This document shows, one piece after another, positions 3,702 to 54,349 of a stretch of DNA of 64,000 nucleotides; the first letter of the stretch is position 1; every line of letters begins with the position of its first letter. Under the pieces are notes generated by a model that saw only the letters and a list, made by a program, of their open reading frames with translations, did no database searches and was not told the origin of the DNA. This DNA comes from Chitinophagales bacterium. Lineage in GTDB: Bacteria; Bacteroidota; Bacteroidia; Chitinophagales; Saprospiraceae. The stretch covers positions 747 through 64,746 of the forward strand of contig JAAFIM010000007.1 of NCBI GenBank assembly GCA_013297745.1, in the 5' to 3' direction. Position numbers and translations under genes: made by a program.

Positions 3702-3779
3702 AGATTAAAAGTTGGTTTTGTACAAATGTGTGAAAAGAATTACTTGTGGTTAAAAAATTTACTTTTATTCGCTTGTTGT

Positions 3780-3884
3780 CCCCGCGTTGTAACGCGGGGC
3801 TATTTCTGTTAAACCCTGTTGGGGGTTTTATTTTGCCAACCCCGAAGGGGTTGAACGGCAATTGCCCCGTGTGAAACACGGGGT
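3780..3884. repeat. Cluster of GC-rich stem-loops in AT-rich intergenic DNA
   Basis: ccccgcg-ttgtaa-cgcgggg, ggggtt-N10-aacccc, ccccgaagggg and ccccgtg-tgaaa-cacgggg lie within 105 bp between divergent genes. Confidence 0.6.
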
Positions 3885-3992
3885 TTATAAGAAAAAAATA
3901 AAAGTATCGTTGTAAAGATGCACGTTTTTAATCACAAATAAATTGTTCTTTTTGCACAAATGTTGTAAATTTCTAAAAATTAAAATAACAAT

Positions 3993-4609: not shown

Positions 4610-4874
4610 AAGTTGTTTAGTAAGAATTTTTCTACATTTTCAATTTAAAAAAATAACCATTTGTGTATTTTAAGCAACAGACTAAAGTCTGTTGTAATCG
4701 TTTTTTTGTCTCTCAACGGGTTAAAACCCGTTGGTATTGATTGATAAAACTGTATAACGCGTGGGACTTTAGTCCCAAAAGCGCGAAAAAATCCTAAATC
4801 TCAATTGTGCTGGGACTTTAGTCCCGCACCATACAGAGAAATTAAAAGATAAAAAAAGCATACTAAACAACTTC
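4610..4874 (+). mobile_element. MITE-like repeat family 2, copy b
   Basis: Starts 3 bp after the stop of 3993..4607. It has the same TIRs and hairpins as 1613..1922. Confidence 0.75.
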
Positions 4875-4930
4875 AAAGATAAAATTCAATAAAGACGAAT
4901 TGCAACTGCCGCAATTCGTCTTATTTTTTG

Positions 4931-7693: not shown

Positions 7694-10153
7694 TTATTCA
7701 AAAATAAGTCTCAACGTAAACGCATTCCAATCCGCCGCCGATTCTCCTTTTTGTCGTTGGCTGCGCAGTTGATTATCAACAGGCTTTTCCATATCTGCCA
7801 AAGGCAAACCATTTTGCAACCATTCGCTAATATCAAACCTGCCCCAACTAATTAGCACTTTTACATACGAAAATTGCGTTTTAGGGTTGCACTCCAACCC
7901 AAATACTTCGCTGCGAGCTTGAGTAAAAGCTATATTTTGATTAGTTGCCAAAGTTGTAGGTTCTATAATCGGCGTAATGCTGTAGTCGCGGCTCATATAC
8001 AGCAGCGCAACCTGCAAACTTTGGGTAGTATCCACTTGATTTTTATAACTCACCGAAGCCGCAAAATTAGCCACCCGCGCACTACCTTTGCTATTGGGTT
8101 GGGTTTGTATCAACAAAGGGCTATATTGGTTAAAATCTTGCTTAATGGGAATTTGATAGGTTTTATTAGCTGCCAAATCCTGTATATGTACGGTCAATTC
8201 TGCCCCCAAAAACGACTGCAAGCGGGCAGGGTGGGGATTGTGCAAAAATAATCTTTGTTTAAACATCGCCATCGTTTTCAACCAACCGCTCACTTCTACC
8301 GCTGACACCAAATCGGCTGGGCTGCTGGCGCGTGTCAAAGGCGTTTGGCGGGGACTGAGTAGTAAAAAACCATCATTTTGGCTGGCTACGTACACATCTA
8401 CGGGCGCATTTTCTGCTATGTTGGTATAAACGGGCAAAAAATTGCATAAAGGGCTGTCTTTAAACTCTGAAAAGTTGGGTTGAGTGCCTGCTTTTATCTT
8501 CAAAAACACCTCTTTGTCTTCAGGCAGTAGATAATCTATCAAACCCGACGTCCAAAATTCCTGATTTTCTACATTTATGGGTATAAATTTTAAAGTTTCT
8601 TCTAGATACTCCTTTGCGATAGCCGCCCAACCGCCCTTTTCTATCTCCCAAGCCTTACCATTTATAGAACGACAGGGGTATTTTTCGCTATCATTTGCCT
8701 TATTCTGCAAAATTCCGAACCGATACAGCAGTCCGCGCGCTGTAGTGGCGTTATTAAAATAGTTTTTGTACAAATAAACCGTGTAATTATCCGCGTACAG
8801 GCTAAATTCTGCATCGTCTTTGCCAATTTCTACCATATCGGGCATATTCTCAGCCAATAAATTGAGGAAAAAGGCGATATTTTCGTTCTCTTTGGTTGGC
8901 AATATGCCCACATTTAGCTTACTCGCGGCAACTACCAACTGTTCTGGGCGAATTTTGACATAAAATAACTCATTCCCGTTTGAATTTTGTACAAAATCGG
9001 GTACATTTTCCAACTCACAGAAGGCAGGGGCAACATAATTCACCCTCGCCACGCCCGTTTTATCCCGCAAGTTGCTAACTTCCACCTCAAAATGTTCGTT
9101 GGATTTCAATATCGGCAGCCCCTGAAGCGCGCCTATGTCTATTTTGTGTTTATATTCTTTGCTAATTCCGTCAAAAACGCTGATTAAATTATAACAAAAC
9201 TGCCTTTTTGCGCTATCTTGGTTCAAAAAACGGCGGAAGCGGGTGGTTTTATCCTCATTTTTGACATAAAGGCTGGGCGTTTGGGGAAACCCTTTTTCTA
9301 TAACCATTCTTAGCCTAATTTCTAACTCGTGGTAGCTGATATTTCCTGCGGTTATTTTCAACAATTTGCATAAATTGGTGGTAAAAATACCGCTTGGGCT
9401 GCCCGTTTCTTTGGTTTCATACGCACATTCGCTGTAGGCGCAAGCGCAGAGGTGTATATGGGGTGCTTCAGGCACCATTTTTTCAAAAGTTTGGGGCGTT
9501 ATTTGGGTAGAATTTTGGGTATTTTGTCGGTTTAAATTGCGGGTTATCTCTTCTGGGAAAGATTCGTACTGATTACTATCTCTTTTCTGCCCAAAGTTGG
9601 GGTGATTTCGGGGCAAAATTTCCCTTTTTTGGTAATTATCCGATTTCAAATCCTCCCCATAAGCGCGGGTGGCGCGTTCAGAATGGCAAGAATCTTGTAT
9701 GAATATAATCTCCACTTCTTTTTTATACATCAAACTGAATAATTGTCTAATCTCTACACTCAAAATATCAAAAATGGGTTTTCCCGCTTCAATAACCCCA
9801 CTATCACAGGGTACTAATGTGGATAAATAGCCCGTAGCCGATTGAAAATAAGGGTCGGCTTTCTCTTGCGAGCCGTGTCCAGCATAAAATAGGCAAAAAA
9901 TATCCCCTTTTTGTAATAAATTGATATGTTGTTGGATAGCCAGCAGTATATTCCTGCGGGTGGGTAAAGCGGTTTCGTTATTTTGGTGAGAACTGTACAA
10001 TTTTACCGTTTTTTGCTGATAAGTGTTTTTATCAATGTACAAATTGGCACAGGACAAAAAGGCTTCTGCATCGTGGATACAGCCGTATAAATTGCTTATT
10101 TTATCGTGTTGATATTTGTTGATAGCTATAGCTAAAGTATAAAATGTGGGCAT
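7694..10153 (-). CDS. Caspase-like (peptidase C14) domain protein with ~500-aa uncharacterised C-terminal region
   Basis: The N-terminal ~300 aa carry a caspase His-Cys dyad in canonical context: FYAGHGS (His) and IQDSCHSE (Cys). The remainder has no recognisable motifs. Confidence 0.7.
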   Translation of the reverse strand: MPTFYTLAIAINKYQHDKISNLYGCIHDAEAFLSCANLYIDKNTYQQKTVKLYSSHQNNETALPTRRNILLAIQQHINLLQKGDIFCLFYAGHGSQEKADPYFQSATGYLSTLVPCDSGVIEAGKPIFDILSVEIRQLFSLMYKKEVEIIFIQDSCHSERATRAYGEDLKSDNYQKREILPRNHPNFGQKRDSNQYESFPEEITRNLNRQNTQNSTQITPQTFEKMVPEAPHIHLCACAYSECAYETKETGSPSGIFTTNLCKLLKITAGNISYHELEIRLRMVIEKGFPQTPSLYVKNEDKTTRFRRFLNQDSAKRQFCYNLISVFDGISKEYKHKIDIGALQGLPILKSNEHFEVEVSNLRDKTGVARVNYVAPAFCELENVPDFVQNSNGNELFYVKIRPEQLVVAASKLNVGILPTKENENIAFFLNLLAENMPDMVEIGKDDAEFSLYADNYTVYLYKNYFNNATTARGLLYRFGILQNKANDSEKYPCRSINGKAWEIEKGGWAAIAKEYLEETLKFIPINVENQEFWTSGLIDYLLPEDKEVFLKIKAGTQPNFSEFKDSPLCNFLPVYTNIAENAPVDVYVASQNDGFLLLSPRQTPLTRASSPADLVSAVEVSGWLKTMAMFKQRLFLHNPHPARLQSFLGAELTVHIQDLAANKTYQIPIKQDFNQYSPLLIQTQPNSKGSARVANFAASVSYKNQVDTTQSLQVALLYMSRDYSITPIIEPTTLATNQNIAFTQARSEVFGLECNPKTQFSYVKVLISWGRFDISEWLQNGLPLADMEKPVDNQLRSQRQKGESAADWNAFTLRLIFE

Positions 10154-10178
10154 AGTTTAGTGGTTAATTATTAATAGT

Positions 10179-10209
10179 TATACAGAATTTAAAAAGTAAG
10201 TGTGTAATA
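10179..10209. repeat. 30-bp motif TAATACAGAATTTAAAAAGNAAGTGTGTAATA (copy 1 of 7; acts as inverted-repeat terminus of composite elements)
   Basis: Other copies lie at 21967..21998 and 26843..26874. Inverted copies lie at 10737..10768, 27102..27132 and 27131..27160. Confidence 0.7.
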
Positions 10210-10232
10210 AGAGCTATTAAGCATTATAATTG

Positions 10233-10496
10233 AAGTTGTTTAGTATGCTTTTTTATCTTTTAATTTCTCTGTATTGTGCGGGACTAAAGTCCCAGCACAA
10301 TTGAGATTTAGGATTTTTTTGCGCTTTTGGGACTAAAGTCCCGCGCGTTATATAGTTTTATCAATCAATACCAACGGGTTTTAACCCGTTGAGAGACAAA
10401 AAAACGATTACAACAGACTTTAGTCTGTTGCTTAAAGTACATAAATGGTTATTTTTTTTAATTAAAAATGTAGAAAAATTCTTACTAAACAACTTT
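10233..10496 (-). mobile_element. MITE-like repeat family 2, copy c (inverted)
   Basis: Reverse complement of copies a/b with the same TIR and the ggactttagtcc, aacgggttttaacccgtt and aacagactttagtctgtt hairpins. Confidence 0.75.
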
Positions 10497-10516
10497 ATTA
10501 TAAAAATAAGCGAGAG

Positions 10517-10672
10517 CGTGGGGTTTTATACCCCACGCGGTAAAGAATCTTATTAGCGTTGGGTTTTACACCCAACGCAAGCAAGAATAAAATTTTATAA
10601 AATTATTTTTGGAGTGTTGGGTGTAAAACCCAACACTTATAAGGTTTATTTTATCTACCGCACGGGGTGTAA
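10517..10672. repeat. Array of four related GC-rich stem-loops (8-bp stems, 7-nt loops)
   Basis: gcgtgggg-ttttata-ccccacgc, gcgttggg-ttttaca-cccaacgc, gtgttggg-tgtaaaa-cccaacac, gcacgggg-tgtaaaa-ccccgtgc. Stems differ but keep pairing, and loops are conserved or inverted. Confidence 0.7.
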
Positions 10673-10851
10673 AACCCCGTGCTATTGTAAAAATCTACAC
10701 TCTTGTAACTCCAATATTTTAAATAATTTATGATGCTATTACACACTCACTTTTTAAATTCAGTATTAGTTGTTGATAATGAATTGATTATAAGTAAAAA
10801 AAGCGAAACTCCTAAAGGTTGGGAATTTCGCTTTTTGTGTGTATGCTATTG

Positions 10852-11235
10852 TTATTCTCGGCTCATCATATTCACTTTTCCGTTGAGTAATGCGCCATTT
10901 TCTACCTGTAGAAATTTAGTTTCTATGTCTCCCTGAACTTGTGCCGAGCGAAAGAGCGCACAGCCGTTGCGGGCTAATATATTGCCGATAATTTTGCCCT
11001 CGCAGACCAATTCCAAACAATCAATATTGCCGTGAATTTGTGCTTGTGGGGATAAAATTAGCCGTCCAGCACAGAAAACATTCCCATTGATTTGCCCATC
11101 AAGGCGCATATTGGCTTCTGTAACTTTAACGCTGCCGTCAATGATTGTACCTGTAGCAATTTGACAAACAGCTTGCACAGGGCTTTGCTCTTGCACCCAG
11201 TCGGTGGGGGCTTCTTTGGTTTTTTTACCGAACAT
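10852..11235 (-). CDS. Bactofilin-family cytoskeletal protein (DUF583)
   Basis: Beta-helical G-x-I/V-x-G periodicity (TGTIIDGSVKV...GQINGNVF...GNIDCLELVCEGKIIGNI). Confidence 0.7.
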   Translation of the reverse strand: MFGKKTKEAPTDWVQEQSPVQAVCQIATGTIIDGSVKVTEANMRLDGQINGNVFCAGRLILSPQAQIHGNIDCLELVCEGKIIGNILARNGCALFRSAQVQGDIETKFLQVENGALLNGKVNMMSRE

Positions 11236-11241
11236 AACTTT

Positions 11242-12153
11242 TTATCCGTTGAAAATTTTAATATAATAACCTTTTGAGTTGTAAGCGCGCAAAAATTTGG
11301 ATTTGCCGCAAGCAGTAGAACAAACCCCTTGTAGTTCGCCCCCGCAGTTTTCGCACTGCACAAAATGCTCGTTGCAGTGGGGATTGGCGCAATTGACCAT
11401 ACGGGTAGAATGTGTGCCGCAGGTTTTGCAGCGGGTGATAACTGTAGGATTTACCGTATTGATAGGCACTTGCACGCGATTGTCAAACACATAACAGTTG
11501 CCCTCAAAATCCTTGCCGCCTACCATTTTACCGTAGTTAATAATCCCCCCGTGTAGTTGATAAACTTCCCCAAAACCCTGTTCGCGCAGATAAGCGGATG
11601 CTTTTTCGCACTTGATACCGCCCGTGCAATAGGTGAGGATTTTTTTTCCTTTGTACTGTTCCAATTCGTCCAAATGCTCAGGCAAGTTGCGAAAATTATC
11701 AATATCCAAAGTTACGGCGTTTTTGAACTTTCCCAATTGGTGTTCATAATTAGAACGCACATCCAAAACCACCACATCTTCTTGGTCTTTCATAGCCAAA
11801 AATTCTGCTGGGCTTAAATGATTATCTACATCACTATCGGCAGGATTTACCGCCAAAGGCAGGTCAGAATGCACAATTTCAGTTTTATAGCGGACGTGCA
11901 TTTTAACAAAAGACGGCTCATTGACTTCATCAATTTTATAATGAATATCTGCAAAGCGTTCATCTTGAGCCAGCGTCTGCATATAAGTTTGGCATTGGGC
12001 TGCTGTGCCTGAAACGGTGCCGTTGATGCCTTCATCAGCTATCAATACGCGCCCTAAAAGCCCTAATTGTTTGCAAAATTGGAGATGCTGTTCGGCAAGC
12101 TCGGCTGCGTTTGCAATACGCACGTACTTGTAGTACAACAGGGTTTGGTACAT
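11242..12153 (-). CDS. trhO: tRNA uridine(34) hydroxylase, rhodanese-domain protein (YceA/UPF0176)
   Basis: LLYYKYV N-terminus, rhodanese active site YCTGGIKCEKASAYL, C-terminal Cys-rich tail. Colinear with E. coli YceA from memory. Confidence 0.85.
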   Translation of the reverse strand: MYQTLLYYKYVRIANAAELAEQHLQFCKQLGLLGRVLIADEGINGTVSGTAAQCQTYMQTLAQDERFADIHYKIDEVNEPSFVKMHVRYKTEIVHSDLPLAVNPADSDVDNHLSPAEFLAMKDQEDVVVLDVRSNYEHQLGKFKNAVTLDIDNFRNLPEHLDELEQYKGKKILTYCTGGIKCEKASAYLREQGFGEVYQLHGGIINYGKMVGGKDFEGNCYVFDNRVQVPINTVNPTVITRCKTCGTHSTRMVNCANPHCNEHFVQCENCGGELQGVCSTACGKSKFLRAYNSKGYYIKIFNG

Positions 12154-12163
12154 AGAATTTTTT

Positions 12164-13084
12164 TTATGGTTTGAATTTTTTGTCTATAAATGCGCGCTCT
12201 TCATCAGTTAATTGTTCGCGGGTCATACTCTCTTTTCCGCCATTTTCATTTGGTTTTTTGTTTTTTCCTCCTGTGATATGAAACCCGTGGAAAGTAAAAG
12301 AATTGACATCATTTAGCTCTTTACTGTTGTACTTAAAAATAAGATAACAGCCTTTTTCTTCGTCCCAAACTGCTAGAGTGGAATCCTTTATTTGTATAGC
12401 TTTTTGTAGTAGGTTATTAGTAATTTTTTCTTTTTCTTCGCTTTCATTATATAAAAGTGGGCTAATCCATTGGCCTTTCTCTTGCCTTGCAAATTCAGCA
12501 CGATGGTGTTTATCACAATACTCAAAAACTCTAGGCTGGCGATTCTTTTTTAACCAATTTCGTAAATCACTTTCGTTACCAACTATATCAATTTTAACTA
12601 AAATAGGAAGATAAATAGATTCACGTAAAAAAGCTTCTTCATCTATTATAATAAGTTTACGAGCAAGTTTAGTATTATGTTCCCAAAATAAAAATTTATA
12701 AAAATTCGGTATGTTAGGCAGATAATATTCTATAAAATTAATGACTGCACTAGACCCAGAAAATTCAACGCAATACGCATTTTTATTTTGTTGTTCGTAC
12801 TCAAAATAAGTATGATTTTTTGAAATAGGAGTATCTATCCGTTCCATTTTTTGGAAAAAACTACTCACGCTGCTTGATAGCAGTTTAATATTTTTTGCTT
12901 TTAAATCTGCCATAATTTTTTCAACTACGTGATTTAAAATAATAATTTTACAATTTTTTTCAAAAAAAAGCCAGCGAAAAGTATCAAAAATTAGTTCTCT
13001 TGTTGACGTGTCCGTAAAAAGGTATGTATCATTTTTATCAAAGCCAGCGAAAACGATTAATTTTGTTTGTTCCATAATGAGCAT
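12164..13084 (-). CDS. Hypothetical protein, third gene of DUF262/ATPase cassette
   Basis: 306-aa ORF starting 6 nt after the ATPase stop. No recognisable motif. AT-rich. Confidence 0.5.
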   Translation of the reverse strand: MLIMEQTKLIVFAGFDKNDTYLFTDTSTRELIFDTFRWLFFEKNCKIIILNHVVEKIMADLKAKNIKLLSSSVSSFFQKMERIDTPISKNHTYFEYEQQNKNAYCVEFSGSSAVINFIEYYLPNIPNFYKFLFWEHNTKLARKLIIIDEEAFLRESIYLPILVKIDIVGNESDLRNWLKKNRQPRVFEYCDKHHRAEFARQEKGQWISPLLYNESEEKEKITNNLLQKAIQIKDSTLAVWDEEKGCYLIFKYNSKELNDVNSFTFHGFHITGGKNKKPNENGGKESMTREQLTDEERAFIDKKFKP

Positions 13085-13090
13085 ACTTTT

Positions 13091-14248
13091 TTAAAATCCC
13101 ACTAAAAATTCCCTATCAATATCCATTTGGTCAAAAAAACCACTTGGTGCATCTTTTATCCAATATCCTTCCACTATCGGCACGTGAATAGTTCTTGCTT
13201 CTTGGCTATTTTCATCGCGGTCTATGTAATAAATGGCCACATTATCGGGGCTTATGCCTTTTTTATCTTCAGCAAATTTTTTGCAAGCAACCAAAATACC
13301 ATTGATGAGGTGGTCGCTGTGGGTTTCTACCACCACTTGTACGCCCGCCTGTGCAGCGAGAGCTATTAATTCGGCAAGTTTAGCTTGTCCGCTGGGGTGG
13401 ATATGCGCCTCAGGATTTTCTAATAAAACCAAACCATCTTTGGGCGTAGCCAATAGAGCTAATACCACAGGCAAAGCATAAGAAATACCAAAGCCCACGT
13501 TTTGGGGTTTGTATTCAAGCGATGTAATAAGCCCTGCGGTTCTAAATCTAAAATTAAGTTTCAAAAAATCTTTATTATCAATAATGACCGCTTCAACACC
13601 TTCACTTATTTCTCCAAGCCAAGCGTTTACGTTTGAGGATAAATGTAAGTCATCTGCTTTTTCGTGTTTTAGTTGTATGTTAGCAAGTTCTTTGTTACCG
13701 TTAATACTTAAAACGTGTATTGCGTATTCTGCTTTTCCTTGTTTGTGAGAAATTTGACCTTTCTTTTCAGCAATTCGCCAACTTCTTGAATGGGTTTCTT
13801 TTGGTCCAATATGTTCAGTGGCAATATATTGAAATGCTAGACTTTCACTAAATAAAGCCGCTTTGATAGGAGCAAGAATTTTAGAATCTACACTTAATTC
13901 TAAATTATCTACGCTTTTGTCTACTTCATTATTGGGCAGCACAGGGAATACAAATTTGACATAATGATTTATATTGCTATCAAATTGTAAATCAAAAGCG
14001 ATAAAATTATCTTCAGCATATTCGCACAAAGCATCTTTAGCGTTGCCGACATTTACCAAGTCTTCGTTAAGCACCAAACCTTCTTGGAAAGAAGAACTTT
14101 TTAAATAAGATTGCCGCAATAATAATAAACTTTGTATAATGGAAGATTTACCTGCTCCATTTTTGCCTGTAACAACAGTCAAAGGTTTGCAAGTTAGTTC
14201 TGTATTGAGGTGTGATTTGTAATTTTGAATTTTTAGTTTTGTTATCAT
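13091..14248 (-). CDS. ABC-type/AAA_21-family ATPase (DUF3696-like C-terminus)
   Basis: Walker A VTGKNGAGKSS, Walker B/D-loop VLLENPEAHIHP, H-loop VETHSDHL. Its ATG overlaps the upstream stop in an ATGA quartet. Confidence 0.75.
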   Translation of the reverse strand: MITKLKIQNYKSHLNTELTCKPLTVVTGKNGAGKSSIIQSLLLLRQSYLKSSSFQEGLVLNEDLVNVGNAKDALCEYAEDNFIAFDLQFDSNINHYVKFVFPVLPNNEVDKSVDNLELSVDSKILAPIKAALFSESLAFQYIATEHIGPKETHSRSWRIAEKKGQISHKQGKAEYAIHVLSINGNKELANIQLKHEKADDLHLSSNVNAWLGEISEGVEAVIIDNKDFLKLNFRFRTAGLITSLEYKPQNVGFGISYALPVVLALLATPKDGLVLLENPEAHIHPSGQAKLAELIALAAQAGVQVVVETHSDHLINGILVACKKFAEDKKGISPDNVAIYYIDRDENSQEARTIHVPIVEGYWIKDAPSGFFDQMDIDREFLVGF

Positions 14249-17484: not shown

Positions 17485-18186
17485 TTAACCCTCCACATTG
17501 CAGCGTTTAGCTATAAATTGATGTTTTAGGGCGTCAGCTATTTGTGTGCCTTCACATTGCAATTCTGTAAGTTGGCTTCTAGAAGGGTCTTTAGAAGGGT
17601 GTTGTAAAAAAGGGGCTAAAATAGCAAATAAGTCATTATCGCTTATACGCCCGCAATTCGTTAGGTTCAAAGTTGTTAAACTTGTGCAGCCTGATAAATC
17701 CAAGGTTGTTAAATTTGTGCAACGCGATAAATCTAAAGTTGTTAAGGCTTTACATCCCGACAAGTCTAATTGAGTTAATCCAACAAGACCACTAAAATTT
17801 ACTACGTTTAAATGCTCTAGTGAAGTTATTTGCATAGTGGGTAGTTGTTGGCAATTTATAACTCTTAGCTCTTTCAAATTAACTAATCCGATTTTTGCAT
17901 TTATCACCAAGTTTTCTAACACTGGGCACTCTGTAATTATTAATGTTTCTAGTTTTCGTAGAAGTTTGATAGGTTCTATGCTAGTGATATTAACTCTCAA
18001 AAGATTTAATTCCTGCAATTCTCTAATTGCTTTAAAGAAGTCAGAACGCTCAGTTTGGATATTATGGGGAATAACTTGAGTAAAAATAGTTCGCCAATCA
18101 ATACCAATAACATTATTCCACCAATCCGTTCTCGCTTCTTCATTGTCTAAAAAATACGGAGTTTTGCACTCATTGTATCTGGCCAT
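17485..18186 (-). CDS. Leucine-rich-repeat protein
   Basis: LTTLDLSGC/LTTLDLSRC/LTTLNLTNC repeats. Paralog of 18224..18862 with a shared N-terminal W-W motif. Confidence 0.65.
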   Translation of the reverse strand: MARYNECKTPYFLDNEEARTDWWNNVIGIDWRTIFTQVIPHNIQTERSDFFKAIRELQELNLLRVNITSIEPIKLLRKLETLIITECPVLENLVINAKIGLVNLKELRVINCQQLPTMQITSLEHLNVVNFSGLVGLTQLDLSGCKALTTLDLSRCTNLTTLDLSGCTSLTTLNLTNCGRISDNDLFAILAPFLQHPSKDPSRSQLTELQCEGTQIADALKHQFIAKRCNVEG

Positions 18187-18223
18187 AATAATTAATTTTT
18201 AAGGGTTAGAAAAGAGCATTTTT

Positions 18224-18862
18224 TTAATCAAAAACGACACAACCTTTATCTCTAAACTTATTTTTCATAGTCAAGCTAATGGCGCGCGTGCCTTTGCAAT
18301 GCAATTCTTTGAGTGGCAGGGCATTATTCAAAACAGGTTGTAAGTCTTTGGAAATAAAGTGTTTAGAGTGGCTACAATTCAGCGTTTGCAAGTCCAACAT
18401 ATTTTGTAAGAAAGAAAATTTTTCCAAATTTTTGCAGTTGGAGAAATTCAAGAAGGTTAGACTTGGCAATTTGGACAAATTGGATAAATTATCGCAATTG
18501 GAGCAATTAAGCAGCGTTAGGCTGGGCAATTTGGTTACGCTGATGAGTTGGGGGCAGTTGTTGCAAACCAAAGCGGTCAGGTAGGGCAGATTGGCGGCGT
18601 TGGTGAGTAGTGGGCAATTATAACAAACTATAGAGTTGATGTTGTTGAGATTGGCTATAGCATTGAAGTTTAAAATGTTTGTATTCGGACATTTTAATTT
18701 GGTGATAGCAGCAATTTTTTCAAAATTCGGTTTTTCAACGGTACAATCGGCGTGTTGGGTTAAGATAGTTTTCCATTCGGGTTCTACATTTTCCCACCAT
18801 TCGCTGGCAGCTTCTGTATCTTGGAGAAAGGTTACATCGTTGAAATCGGCGTATTTGGCCAT
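18224..18862 (-). CDS. Leucine-rich-repeat protein
   Basis: NCPLL/NCPQL/NCDNL/NCKNL LRR-like repeats. N-terminus similar to 17485..18186. Confidence 0.65.
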   Translation of the reverse strand: MAKYADFNDVTFLQDTEAASEWWENVEPEWKTILTQHADCTVEKPNFEKIAAITKLKCPNTNILNFNAIANLNNINSIVCYNCPLLTNAANLPYLTALVCNNCPQLISVTKLPSLTLLNCSNCDNLSNLSKLPSLTFLNFSNCKNLEKFSFLQNMLDLQTLNCSHSKHFISKDLQPVLNNALPLKELHCKGTRAISLTMKNKFRDKGCVVFD

Positions 18863-18896
18863 AATGATAAAATATAAAGGTTAGAGAAAATAAAAA

Positions 18897-19610
18897 TTAT
18901 CTGTGTACAGAAGTGGGAAAGTATGGGCTAAAATCGTCGTTCCAACTTGGTTTTGATTTTACATACCAAATTTTAAACGCTAAAAATTGGCTTTCAGGTT
19001 GCAATTCTGCTTTTATTCTGTCTGCGTAGATTGCTTGTTCAGGCTTATTTTCGTTGTCGTAAAAATCATCTTTAAGTTGGGTCAAATCTGCCATTGCTTC
19101 TACAAGCAGTTTCCGCAAAGCGGCCGCTTTCATCCTGCTAGCGGCTGGAGGTTTATAAGTTGAGTCTATTTTACAATCTGCATTATAAATCCGAGAAAGT
19201 AATTTTACTGTGTTTAAAGTAGTTGGGTCAGTTTCTGTGGTAGAAATATCTACTTTTTCCTTTGGATTTTTAAAGGCTGTTAGGAGAAAAGAAATTTTTT
19301 CGGCTATCAAAATTTGTGAGTTTGTACAATCTAAAATATCGCTAAACGATTCACCGCTTTTCCGCGAGTTGCAATAACTACAAGCGTACATTAGATTATT
19401 CCAATTAAATTTTTTATGAGGGTTAGTATAACCGTTTGTTGTGTGATTTTGATAATGTTCAACTATAAAATCTGTATCAATTTTTTTCTCGCATAAGTAG
19501 CATTTATGATGAAAATCTGCTTGCAATCGATTCAAAACATCTTCATCGTCATACTTTTTTTGCGCTGCTAAAGAAGTGGGCGCAGGTTGGGATTTATGAA
19601 AGTTTATCAT
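18897..19610 (-). CDS. HNH endonuclease (PtuB-like)
   Basis: HHKCYLCEKK...EHY...NLMYACSYCNSRK is an HNH/His-Me finger signature. It overlaps the upstream ATPase gene by 17 nt. Confidence 0.65.
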   Translation of the reverse strand: MINFHKSQPAPTSLAAQKKYDDEDVLNRLQADFHHKCYLCEKKIDTDFIVEHYQNHTTNGYTNPHKKFNWNNLMYACSYCNSRKSGESFSDILDCTNSQILIAEKISFLLTAFKNPKEKVDISTTETDPTTLNTVKLLSRIYNADCKIDSTYKPPAASRMKAAALRKLLVEAMADLTQLKDDFYDNENKPEQAIYADRIKAELQPESQFLAFKIWYVKSKPSWNDDFSPYFPTSVHR

Positions 19611-21087
19611 AACTGCTAATTTTTGCTTGATACAATTCCTTAGTTTCGGCTAATAAAATTTTAATCTCAGCAGCGCGAAATTTTGGCATTTCTTGGAGTT
19701 GATTGCGCAATTTTTGCAGCATTTGTATATCTTTTTTCGTGGGTTGTTCTAAGCTCAACAAATTTTCATAGTCTGCTTTTATTTGGTTCAGAAAGTTAGA
19801 AAATTTATCCACTTCAAAATGCGTTTCCACTATCGCTTCAGCAGGAAATCCAACTAATGGCTCATTTATAAGGTTATGATTTTCCAAATCATAAACTACT
19901 GCGTTATCTATAGAGGATAACACATAAGGCGAATGGCTGCTTACAATAAACTGTATATTTGGGAAAAAACTGGTTAAAAATGGTAAAATTTGCTTTTGCA
20001 GTGCAATGTGTAGATGAGTTTCTATTTCATCGATTATTACTATTCCCTGTATATTCTCAGGTTCAGCATACCACATTATTTTTTTAAATAAGTTATCTAT
20101 ACCTTCGCTATGAGAAGATACGGGAATAGACCGTCTTCTATTTTGGTGTGTAGATATTGTTGTTTTTATTTTTTCAATTCTAAGCAAAATTTCTGATAGA
20201 ATATAAACAATGGACTTAAACCCGTCTGACAACTGTTGTAAGCCTACAGGCTCGCGGCCTGGTAACTTTACATCAAAATAGTAATTGCGAGAATCGAATG
20301 TAAATTTAAATTCATTTCTTTCAATTTCTGAAATTTCAAAAATACTGCACAAGTAACTTTCAAAGATGTTGAACCAATTTTCTACTTCCGCTACTTCATC
20401 TTCATTTTTATTTAGTGAAGAGAAGGCTTGCTGTATGCGTTTTTGCATCAAATAGTGGATAAATTGAGAGTTTGCTTGTTCTCTAATACCTTGCTCTTCA
20501 AATTTGAATGCCTGAGTTGATTTTTCTGTTTGAGGTTTTAGAAAATCAAAATCACGTTGTGCTGGAATATAAGCAGTTACAAAAGGAACTTCGTAATAAT
20601 CAATAAATCCGTAAACTAATTGGTCAGTTGCGGAAAAATTGATTTTTCTTAGCCAATTTTCACTATTTTTACCTAACAAACTGACACTACCAAGTCGCTG
20701 TCGAGCCCCAAACCGAGCCCCAAAATCAATGGCTTGTTGTTCAAACTCATTATCAGAAATATGATTTTCTAATAGATTGATGTCGTCTAAAGAAAGATTA
20801 GAGTTTTCTTTAGCTTTTAGTAAGCTTTGGTGACTTATTTTTAGCTGGGCTTTAAGAGAAGATGTGTGAATTTGGAAAGTGGCACTTGAATATTCATTAG
20901 TTAAGTCTTGCAATTTATCGCGTATTTCTTCCAACACGGAACTCTTACCACTCCCATTTTTTCCTGTGAGGATTAGGTGGCGGCGAATATCTTTACCAAT
21001 TTCTATATGAATACGGCGTAGGTGGCGGCATTTTAGTATAAAAATATCAGTTAGAAAGTACTGCTCATAAAGTCCGTCCTTTTCCAT
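19594..21087 (-). CDS. AAA_21/ABC-type ATPase (PtuA-like)
   Basis: Walker A LTGKNGSGKSS. Walker B/H-loop VIIDEIETHLH...SSHSP. 497 aa. Visibly AT-richer than the adjacent Fe-S gene. Confidence 0.7.
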   Translation of the reverse strand: MEKDGLYEQYFLTDIFILKCRHLRRIHIEIGKDIRRHLILTGKNGSGKSSVLEEIRDKLQDLTNEYSSATFQIHTSSLKAQLKISHQSLLKAKENSNLSLDDINLLENHISDNEFEQQAIDFGARFGARQRLGSVSLLGKNSENWLRKINFSATDQLVYGFIDYYEVPFVTAYIPAQRDFDFLKPQTEKSTQAFKFEEQGIREQANSQFIHYLMQKRIQQAFSSLNKNEDEVAEVENWFNIFESYLCSIFEISEIERNEFKFTFDSRNYYFDVKLPGREPVGLQQLSDGFKSIVYILSEILLRIEKIKTTISTHQNRRRSIPVSSHSEGIDNLFKKIMWYAEPENIQGIVIIDEIETHLHIALQKQILPFLTSFFPNIQFIVSSHSPYVLSSIDNAVVYDLENHNLINEPLVGFPAEAIVETHFEVDKFSNFLNQIKADYENLLSLEQPTKKDIQMLQKLRNQLQEMPKFRAAEIKILLAETKELYQAKISSYDKLS

Positions 21088-22028: not shown

Positions 22029-22252
22029 AAAAACTTGTGTTTTGAAATTTTTTTAACGGCTTACGCCTAAAAATTTTTTTTCTTCGTACTTTTTGCAGGC
22101 GCAAAAAGTACCAAAAACGCCCTGTTTCTATAAACTTGTTCGCTCCGCTTGCTAAAGCTGCGCTCCGTCTCACTTCAGACAGTATAGAAACTCAACGGAT
22201 TGGTGTAGTTACGCGCTTCGCGCGATTTTTTACTTTATTTTTGTCTACTTAC
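22029..22252. repeat. Structured repeat family 1, copy B (inverted relative to copy A)
   Basis: Reverse complement of copy A. The terminal gtctacTTAc supplies the stop codon of CDS 22249..22470. Confidence 0.8.
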
Positions 22253-53939: not shown

Positions 53940-54014
53940 GGGCGGTTAGCTCAGCTGGTCTAGAGCATCTGCCTTACAAGCAGAGGGTCACAGGTTCGAA
54001 CCCTGTACTGCCCA
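53940..54014 (+). tRNA. tRNA-Val (anticodon UAC); no encoded CCA
   Basis: A cloverleaf can be folded by hand: acceptor GGGCGGT/ACTGCCC, D-arm GCTC...GAGC, anticodon loop CTTACAA, T-arm ACAGG-TTCGAAC-CCTGT. Confidence 0.9.
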
Positions 54015-54078
54015 CAAACAATTATCAACTTTCATTTATTTTCAATCGAAAATAAAGTTTTCCAACTTTTTCTTCTTC

Positions 54079-54153
54079 GGGCGGTTAGCTCAGCTGGTCT
54101 AGAGCATCTGCCTTACAAGCAGAGGGTCACAGGTTCGAACCCTGTACTGCCCA
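54079..54153 (+). tRNA. tRNA-Val (anticodon UAC), identical duplicate; CCA encoded
   Basis: Identical 75-nt sequence to the first copy, followed by CCA. Confidence 0.9.
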
Positions 54154-54349
54154 CCAAAAGCTGTTTATACGAAAGTATAAGCAGTTTTTTTTTGCCAAAA
54201 AATAAAAAAATAGACTTTTGGCACGATTTTTGCTATAGATTGTGAATAAAATAGCTAATTTTTGCCCCAACGGTAACGTTTTTAGTTATAACCACATTAA
54301 AAGCGAAATATACAAACATTCAATCTCACCATAAACAAATTTCTTCCCA

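Follow-up and report, generated by a model that had tools for sequence, protein, structure and literature searches.

The 64,000-nucleotide stretch of contig JAAFIM010000007.1 analyzed here (assembly GCA_013297745.1, Chitinophagales bacterium), called the window, carries a compact array of four hairpins in the spacer between a bactofilin gene and a caspase-domain gene. We identify these hairpins as probable repetitive extragenic palindromic (REP) elements of a Bacteroidota REP family. They would form a cluster like a bacterial interspersed mosaic element (BIME), or a nest of REPINs (inverted REP doublets), and would be neither a gene regulator nor a clustered regularly interspaced short palindromic repeat (CRISPR) array. 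We give this reading a probability of about 70%. In other genomes, a near-identical hairpin flanks genes for small Y1 transposases and is also dispersed away from them, which, judged by sequence and layout, is the arrangement of REP/REPIN repeats with their REP-associated tyrosine transposase (RAYT). The window units and the REPs that flank Y1 genes have the stem length, the loop, the inner stem, and two outer-stem variants in common. The family is marked by an invariant inner stem and loop, GGGT-TTTAY-ACCC, by five variable but paired outer base pairs, and, in its best-preserved members, by the 5' tag ATCA(A/G)TA.

Direct reading of the sequence and a perfect-hairpin scan of the window gave four perfect hairpins with stems of 9–10 bp and loops of 5 nt (Table 1). 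The degenerate hairpin pattern matches four times in the window, and none of 100 dinucleotide-preserving shuffles contained a match. A first-pass annotation of this DNA had correctly recognized the four GC-rich hairpins. Its division into stem and loop has to be redrawn, since the T–A closing pair counts as stem, and the array does not end at 10672, where the annotation had placed its limit, but with the last unit at 10682. The uniform spacing of 40–45 bp that it described is not observed either: the start-to-start distances are 40, 58, and 46 nt, and the hairpins are separated by unequal, AT-rich gaps of 17, 34–35, and 22–23 nt. The stems vary at four positions across the units, and each change is two-sided (G-C to A-T, T-A to C-G, G-C to T-A, and C-G to T-A). 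No pair is broken, and the compensatory nature of the changes, which had been noted before, thus stands. Such compensation would be expected because the hairpin must stay foldable. The earlier description of the last two units as the first two flipped holds in mirrored order only. Unit 3 mirrors unit 2, from which it differs by one compensated pair (C-G to T-A); unit 4 mirrors unit 1 and differs from it by two.

The array as a whole is an imperfect palindrome, the two halves of which align at 83% with one 6-nt indel. The arms of units 2 and 3, taken with their flanks, are complementary at 90% over 31 nt, and those of units 1 and 4 at 79% over 33 nt. In the predicted fold, whether of single-stranded DNA (ssDNA) or of RNA, units 1 and 4 form local hairpins and units 2 and 3 pair into one long hairpin; the inner doublet would in this form be REPIN-like. 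The ssDNA fold of the array has a predicted energy of −53 kcal/mol, against −19.6 kcal/mol for shuffled sequences (z-score −10.6), and the RNA fold reaches −85 kcal/mol (z = −11.9). The array is extragenic and lies inside a 698-bp spacer between positions 10153 and 10852. The ends of the palindrome (10515/10683) show no sign of a target-site duplication, as Y1 transposition predicts. Two readings would account for the + + − − layout. In one, the inner doublet was inserted between the two units of an outer doublet; in the other, a direct pair underwent inverted duplication. When the inner doublet is taken out, the outer arms, AGCGTGGGG...GCGGTA and TACCGC...CCCCGTGCT, are complementary at 23 of 28 positions. 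The data favour neither reading.

We scanned one genome per species with the degenerate pattern, the loop being fixed as TTTAY. At least 13 stretches matched. Within the 64-kb window, the strict pattern occurs at this locus only. At least eight of these stretches belong to JAAFIN01, a metagenome-assembled genome (MAG) of Cytophagales, where the hairpin is found on at least eight contigs. One of them, L002, contains an open reading frame (ORF) of 153 aa that matches Pfam Y1_Tnp (IS200-like; E=5e-28) and carries the HUH (HIH) and Y...Q motifs. Hairpin arrays of alternating orientation, GCGTTGGGT-TTTAT-ACCCAACGC and ACGCAGGGT-ATAAA-ACCCTGCGT, lie on both sides of this gene. Unit 2 of the window and the JAAFIN01 REP GCGTTGGGTTTTATACCCAACGC are equal at 22 of 23 nt. 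The hairpin also occurs, away from any Y1 gene, on at least seven other contigs of this MAG: two have single units and five have inverted doublets. These free copies are extragenic and sit in short gaps between long ORFs, and ATCA(A/G)TA precedes every hairpin copy in JAAFIN01.

Two further Y1 proteins, P0003 and P0004, encoded on contigs L018/L019 and L023, are 82–85% identical to the L002 protein. Inverted doublets lie to the left and right of their genes and include ATCAATA-ACGTGGGGT-TT(C/T)AT-ACCCCACG, which has the stem of unit 1; that stem, (A/G)CGTGGGGT, recurs in the Y1-flanking hairpins of L018 and L023. The Y1 gene occupies a constant site between the OEP (outer-membrane efflux) and RND-adaptor genes (2035–2496 in L018/L019 and 1549–2010 in L023), and this constancy suggests vertical, resident inheritance and not hopping. 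The likeness to REP/BIME clusters that the first-pass annotation had pointed out is supported by these three Y1 loci and by the extragenic doublets of JAAFIN01.

Covariation was examined in 29 distinct units from four genomes (the window and three others). In this set, 96.6% of the stem cells are paired. Five of the nine pairs, all of them outer pairs, have changed on both sides (43 cells), and the inner GGGT/ACCC is invariant. None of 500 shuffles reached the observed paired fraction, two-sided-change count, or covariation score, and slid registers left 23–54% of cells paired. We also looked up further Y1 homologs (P0005, P0006, P0008, P0024, and P0064). Related hairpins were present on both sides at all nine Y1 loci examined (L002, L018, L023, L024, L117, L119, L111, L124, and L125), including the distant members of the clade, the hairpins of which are given in Table 1. 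The repeats therefore co-vary with the enzyme. A search with fingerprints of the window's miniature inverted-repeat transposable elements (MITEs) found none of them at the P0005, P0006, and P0008 loci; L124 and L125 lay outside this search.

Hairpins with a similar centre are found well beyond this clade. A doublet scan of metagenomes returned 92 stretches, which are mostly GTAG-tagged doublets such as GTAGGTCGGGTTTTATACCCGAC...GTCGGGTATAAAACCCGACCTAC in unrelated high-GC genomes. The 13-nt core GGGTTTTAYACCC forms the centre of multicopy GTAG-tagged inverted doublets in several such genomes (JGI contigs L025–L116, for example Ga0105250, Ga0157379, and Ga0209770). Contigs L036 and L041 carry a canonical RAYT (111.7 bits in L036) with GTAG-GGGAGGGT-TTTAT-ACCCTCCC flanks, the core of which is the same as that of the array. 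On L033, an array with a period of 48 nt has the order + + + + − −. The hairpin-doublet scan gave no match among viral contigs.

The first-pass annotation had proposed a search for a RAYT. Such a search succeeds in other genomes to the extent that a Y1/HUH gene with hairpins on both sides is found, but the enzyme is IS200-like. P0001 and P0004 pass the NCBIfam IS200/IS605 model NF033573 with 83–85 bits (cutoff 55), and both fail the class 2 REP-associated tyrosine transposase model NF047646 (24.3 and 23.4 bits, respectively; cutoff 80). The nearest solved structures are ISDra2 and IS608 TnpA (E ~1e-11), and E. coli TnpA-REP is not among them. When 24 members of the clade are aligned, the consensus reads EDHVHLLISL, WQDGY, and VRNYIKNQExHH. 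The proteins are mostly 139–170 aa long (range 113–192), and the named matches are Bacteroidota. Quentin et al. (2018, PMC6006769) described a subclass 1.2 of about 148 aa from Cyanobacteria and Bacteroidetes with the signature DH[IV]H, WQ, YIKNQKEHH, which is present in low copy, lacks IS200-type ends, and has no REP associated with it. No later work on subclass 1.2 turned up in the literature library that was searched. By its signature motifs, and not by the clustering of those authors, the hairpin-associated Y1 protein is a class 1, subclass 1.2 protein and not a canonical RAYT.

We infer that the genome of the window has, or recently had, a Y1 enzyme of this kind, and that this enzyme acts on the window units. 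By analogy with IS200/IS605 elements and RAYTs, the units may move by an ssDNA cut-and-paste mechanism. The hairpin would form where DNA is single-stranded, as on the lagging-strand template, and there the small HUH/Y1 transposase would bind it and cut and rejoin the strand beside it. Biochemical work on IS608 and ISDra2 TnpA and on E. coli TnpA-REP suggests that the enzyme would recognize the conserved inner stem and loop and that the 5' tag would guide cleavage. Single units or inverted doublets could be copied or moved in this way, being excised and reinserted with no target duplication made.

Several observations weigh against the assignment of the array to this REP family. A Y1 gene is missing from the 64 kb: the L002 Y1 protein, used as a tblastn query, had no homolog there. 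The pattern scan and a self-BLAST of the intergenic region located the strict pattern and the 169-bp element only once in the 64 kb, and dispersal in this genome is therefore unproven. The tag is clear solely beside unit 4, where ACAATA matches the family tag TCAATA at five of six positions; units 1–3 are preceded by CGAGA, TTATTA, and TTATAA, respectively. The + + − − order is unlike the alternating order of BIMEs and unlike the tag-inward doublets of JAAFIN01. The Y1-bearing genomes belong to a different lineage (32% GC compared with 39.6% in the window) and have no other DNA in common with the window, so the link to the Y1-associated REPs rests on a similarity of approximately 23–30 nt. The core GGGTTTTAYACCC is also present in the GTAG-tagged REPs of unrelated high-GC genomes and beside the canonical RAYT of L036. 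This core alone is thus not specific to the family.

The window was placed by exact-sequence look-up within an NCBI contig of 90,380 bp. The history of the locus was read from relatives encoding proteins that are >90% identical (JGI/ENA contigs L015, L016, and L017). All three have the same gene order, and their DNA is 90–97% identical to the window over the shared region. In each of them the bactofilin–caspase spacer measures 110 bp and contains no array block. The BLASTN breakpoints lie at window positions 10180 and 10766 with a 3-bp overlap (TAA). They coincide with the terminal inverted repeats (TIRs) of an outer MITE (10180–10209 and 10737–10766), and the left edge of the block is 27 nt upstream of the caspase-domain start codon. 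To judge from these alignments, the block is one insertion, a nest in which an outer TIR-type MITE encloses a 267-bp MITE and the array. Because the block is missing in the relatives and the terminator-like hairpin behind the bactofilin gene is conserved, the array lies outside the conserved control region of the two genes. Two other insertions relative to L015 are seen at 1613–1922 and 3730–3925, and no comparable miniature element was found across the 20 kb of L015. On this comparison, the array is part of a recent burst of miniature elements in the lineage. A more distant relative (L122/L123, 88% GlnRS identity) differs in the gene that follows the rhodanese gene and provided no intermediate state. 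The GlnRS of the window is about 63% identical to those of named Cytophagales and Chitinophagales, and the organism is placed among deep-branching Bacteroidota.

Table 1. Positions of the array, its neighbours, and other repeats in the window, and hairpins flanking distant Y1 genes.
Feature	Position	Strand	Description
Unit 1	10516–10538	+	REP-type hairpin GCGTGGGGT-TTTAT-ACCCCACGC; stem 9 bp, loop 5 nt
Unit 2	10556–10578	+	REP-type hairpin GCGTTGGGT-TTTAC-ACCCAACGC
Unit 3	10613–10637	−	REP-type hairpin; window strand AGTGTTGGGT-GTAAA-ACCCAACACT; minus-strand reading AGTGTTGGGT-TTTAC-ACCCAACACT
Unit 4	10660–10682	−	REP-type hairpin; window strand GCACGGGGT-GTAAA-ACCCCGTGC; minus-strand reading ACAATA-GCACGGGGT-TTTAC-ACCCCGTGC
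Inner inverted doublet	10546–10646		Units 2 and 3 with flanks; 101 bp
Whole imperfect palindrome	10515–10683		169 bp; unit order + + − − (orientation set by the loop)
Inserted block (outer MITE)	10181–10765		585 bp; absent from L015/L016/L017; holds family-2 MITE and array
Family-2 MITE	10231–10497	−	267 bp; TIR GAAGTTGTTTAGTA; 18 bp left of the array
Outer MITE family	10180–10766, 26843–27131, 21966–~22035, 27130–27161		Termini TACWGAATTTAAAAAGTRAGTGTGTAATA; includes one solo terminus
Third repeat family	~385–590, ~22030–22230, ~26880–27066, ~55770–55975		~200 bp; centre is a perfect hairpin, GTACTTTTTGC-GCCT-GCAAAAAGTAC
Insertion relative to L015	3730–3925		196 bp; three GC-rich hairpins: CCCCGCGT-TGTA, CAACCCC-GAA, CCCCGTGT-GAA
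Caspase-domain (Peptidase_C14) gene	7694–10153	−	Start codon faces the array spacer
Bactofilin gene	10852–11235	−	Upstream neighbour on the minus strand; stop codon borders the array spacer
Terminator-like hairpin and T-run	10798–10836	−	After the bactofilin gene; kept in relatives; outside the inserted block
L117, distant clade member			Flanking hairpin AGTAGGGTTTTAAACCCTACT
L119 and L024, distant clade members			Flanking hairpin CAATA-GGATAGGGTTTCAAACCCTATCC
L125, distant clade member			Flanking arrays GGGTAGGGT-TTCA-ACCCTACCC
L124 (Rhodoflexus caldus), distant clade member			Flanking 24-bp stem around GGTTTGCAAACC
L111, 30%-identical homolog			Flanking hairpin CCGGGGGT-TTTAC-ACCCC

The strongest alternative, which is partly compatible with a REP cluster and which we nevertheless consider unlikely, takes the 169-bp palindrome for an ordinary TIR-type MITE, or for an inner segment of the outer MITE, that a DDE transposase moved in double-stranded form. 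The likeness to Y1-associated REPs would then be convergent or accidental. The array is indeed bounded by inverted termini of 28–33 nt and lies in a segment rich in TIR-type MITEs, three families of which occur in the window. The relatives differ by the whole 585-bp block and not by the array alone, and the neighbouring family-2 MITE, which also has four hairpins, clearly moves as a 267-bp TIR unit (96.6% identity between copies). Chance likeness also gains from the presence of the same core in unrelated REP families. Against this alternative, a target-site duplication is not seen at 10515/10683, the palindrome has no second copy in the 64 kb, and the other copies of the outer MITE (26843–27131 and 21966 onward) are without the array. 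The recognition of TIRs needs no fully compensated stem changes. In addition, unit 2 is almost letter for letter a Y1-flanking REP, unit 1 has the stem of another, and the units agree with these REPs in stem length, loop, and inner stem.

That the hairpins act in RNA, as tandem terminators or attenuators, as a structured 5' leader, or as a stabilizer of the caspase-domain mRNA, is in our view very improbable. The array does lie between the end of one gene and the start of the next on the same strand, its predicted RNA fold is very stable, and REP elements elsewhere influence mRNA decay and termination (PMC3733652). But none of the units has a T-run behind it on either strand (the tails read ggtaaaga, aagcaaga, tccaaaaa, and ggtagata), and a terminator scan called none of the four units. 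The true terminator of the bactofilin gene is separate and conserved, and the entire block is missing from the three relatives that have these genes. The tandem rho-independent attenuators suggested in the first-pass annotation are thus not supported. No Rfam family reached even half of its threshold: a permissive search of 10100–10900 gave at best 45.5 bits against a threshold of 110, for a plant miRNA-precursor model, which reflects a generic likeness to long hairpins. At gathering thresholds, Rfam 15 reported only two tRNA-Val genes in the whole window. These are tRNA-Val(TAC) genes in tandem (53940–54015 and 54079–54156), 64 nt apart and with equal Rfam scores. A degenerate or miniature CRISPR-like array, or an operator cluster for a DNA-binding protein, would account for four similar 23-nt repeats at roughly regular spacing, but this can be set aside almost entirely: the repeats vary in sequence and flip in orientation, the gaps are unequal and AT-rich, and the block is missing in close relatives. 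A CRISPR array proper, which the first-pass annotation had already discounted, was likewise rejected: orientation and spacing do not fit, and no cas gene or domain is present among the neighbours examined.

The REP elements of E. coli, Pseudomonas, and Stenotrophomonas, with their BIMEs, REPINs, and RAYTs, are the closest known counterparts of the system proposed here (Nunvar 2010 and Bertels & Rainey 2011, as cited in PMC3116915, PMC3733652, and PMC6006769). The two are alike in having short extragenic stem-loop palindromes as singles, inverted doublets, and clusters. Both have repeats that flank a single small HUH/Y1 gene on both sides, plus scattered copies free of the gene (here in other Bacteroidota genomes), and both have compensated stem changes and no target duplication. 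They differ in the tag and in the enzyme. The REP survey of Di Nocera et al. distinguished GTAG- and CGTC-tagged superfamilies (PMC3733652), whereas the tag here is ATCA(A/G)TA, and neither GTAG nor CGTC adjoins the window units. The protein fails the RAYT model and passes that for IS200/IS605. BIME clusters alternate in orientation, and the window array does not. With subclass 1.2, the Y1 proteins have the signature DH[IV]H/WQ/YIKNQ.EHH, a length of about 145–153 aa, and an origin in Bacteroidota in common. The published survey assigns no REP or insertion sequence (IS) ends to that subclass; here hairpins border the gene left and right at all nine loci examined, and copies are dispersed in one MAG. 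The closest solved structures belong to IS608 and ISDra2, elements of the IS200/IS605 group, the miniature derivatives of which are the palindrome-associated transposable elements (PATEs); this group also recognizes subterminal hairpins in ssDNA. Each end of such an IS, however, is one imperfect hairpin in the same orientation, whereas the Y1 genes here have inverted doublets or arrays to either side, and the free copies take the form of inverted doublets. The constant gene position in L018/L019 and L023 is more like that of a resident RAYT than that of a hopping IS. Like TIR-type and nested MITEs, the array is imperfectly palindromic and has inverted termini, sits within one MITE beside another, and is absent from relatives together with them. 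It differs from TIR-type MITEs in that no target duplication and no further copy are seen in the 64 kb and in that its repeating unit is a Y1-associated REP.

The family-2 MITE beside the array has two other copies in the window, at 4610–4877 (96.6% identical to the copy next to the array) and at 1613–1922; identity within the family ranges from 90 to 97%. It contains four internal hairpins in the orientation − − + +. The hairpin at 10372–10391, ATCAATAC-CAACGGGT-TTTA-ACCCGTTG, bears the 5' tag ATCAATA of the hairpin family of the array. Beyond the array, three related hairpins were found in the 64 kb, all within family-2 MITEs, and GGG...CCC hairpins with paired outer stems number seven in the window against 0.4 expected. 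The first-pass annotation had listed similar hairpins elsewhere in the window. Those at 3780–3883 exist, but they belong to a separate family with CCCC...GGGG polarity and loops of 3–4 nt, and among the family-2 hairpins only CAACGGGT-TTTA-ACCCGTTG resembles the units. The copy at 1613–1922 has 44 extra nt (1826–1869) within the loop of one hairpin, and the orthologous site in L015 is without the MITE. Each copy of the outer MITE that was seen encloses another small element, which suggests a preferred target or composite elements. Two copies of the third repeat family lie in or beside outer-MITE termini, and two lie elsewhere.

Further differences from the relatives were observed around these elements. 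The nest parts the caspase-domain gene from any promoter in the 110-bp ancestral spacer (window 10154–10180 compared with L015 8837–8864). Expression of the caspase-domain gene must therefore start within the nest or read through it. A 3.4-kb contig from an independent assembly of the same organism (L001; Logan, SRR9948925) is 99.9% identical to window positions 10701–14095. It ends within the arm of the outer MITE, 18 nt beyond the right edge of the array; the break point is consistent with a repeat-induced assembly break at the array locus. Between PriA and a 204-aa gene, the relatives have a 311-aa gene of unknown function, where the window shows a family-2 MITE together with a terminator-like hairpin instead (window 4611–4923 compared with L015 14308–15372). 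An Ntox23 toxin-domain gene is present at 630–1580, with a second, partial copy at the left edge of the window; L015 has two tandem paralogs of this gene at 17854–19802.

For annotation, the array is best treated as ordinary selfish repeat DNA with no host function demonstrated, part of 585 bp that were pushed between the caspase-domain gene and its former upstream region. The genomes that are 90–97% identical in their shared regions, with and without the elements, offer a natural comparison for dating the burst of miniature elements. Few mobile-DNA partnerships of bacteria are long-lived and inherited vertically, and REP/REPIN–RAYT systems are among them. To our knowledge, the study of these systems has been nearly confined to Proteobacteria, class 2 RAYTs, and GTAG-tagged repeats. 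The present finding points to a hairpin family in Bacteroidota that has a different tag and an IS200-like class 1 protein as its partner. In a broader proposal, to which we give even odds, the subclass 1.2 Y1 proteins of Bacteroidota would be resident enzymes that mobilize REPs and REPINs of their own hairpin family (a GGGT/ACCC or GGGTTT...AAACCC inner stem with an ATCA(A/G)TA or CAATA tag), a second RAYT lifestyle that would have arisen independently from a class 1 TnpA. The window would then hold their REPs in nested clusters with TIR-type MITEs, the product of a recent burst that has no counterpart in close relatives. If this is true, the orphan subclass 1.2 gains a substrate and a function, and the REP-mobilizing lifestyle would have arisen more than once.

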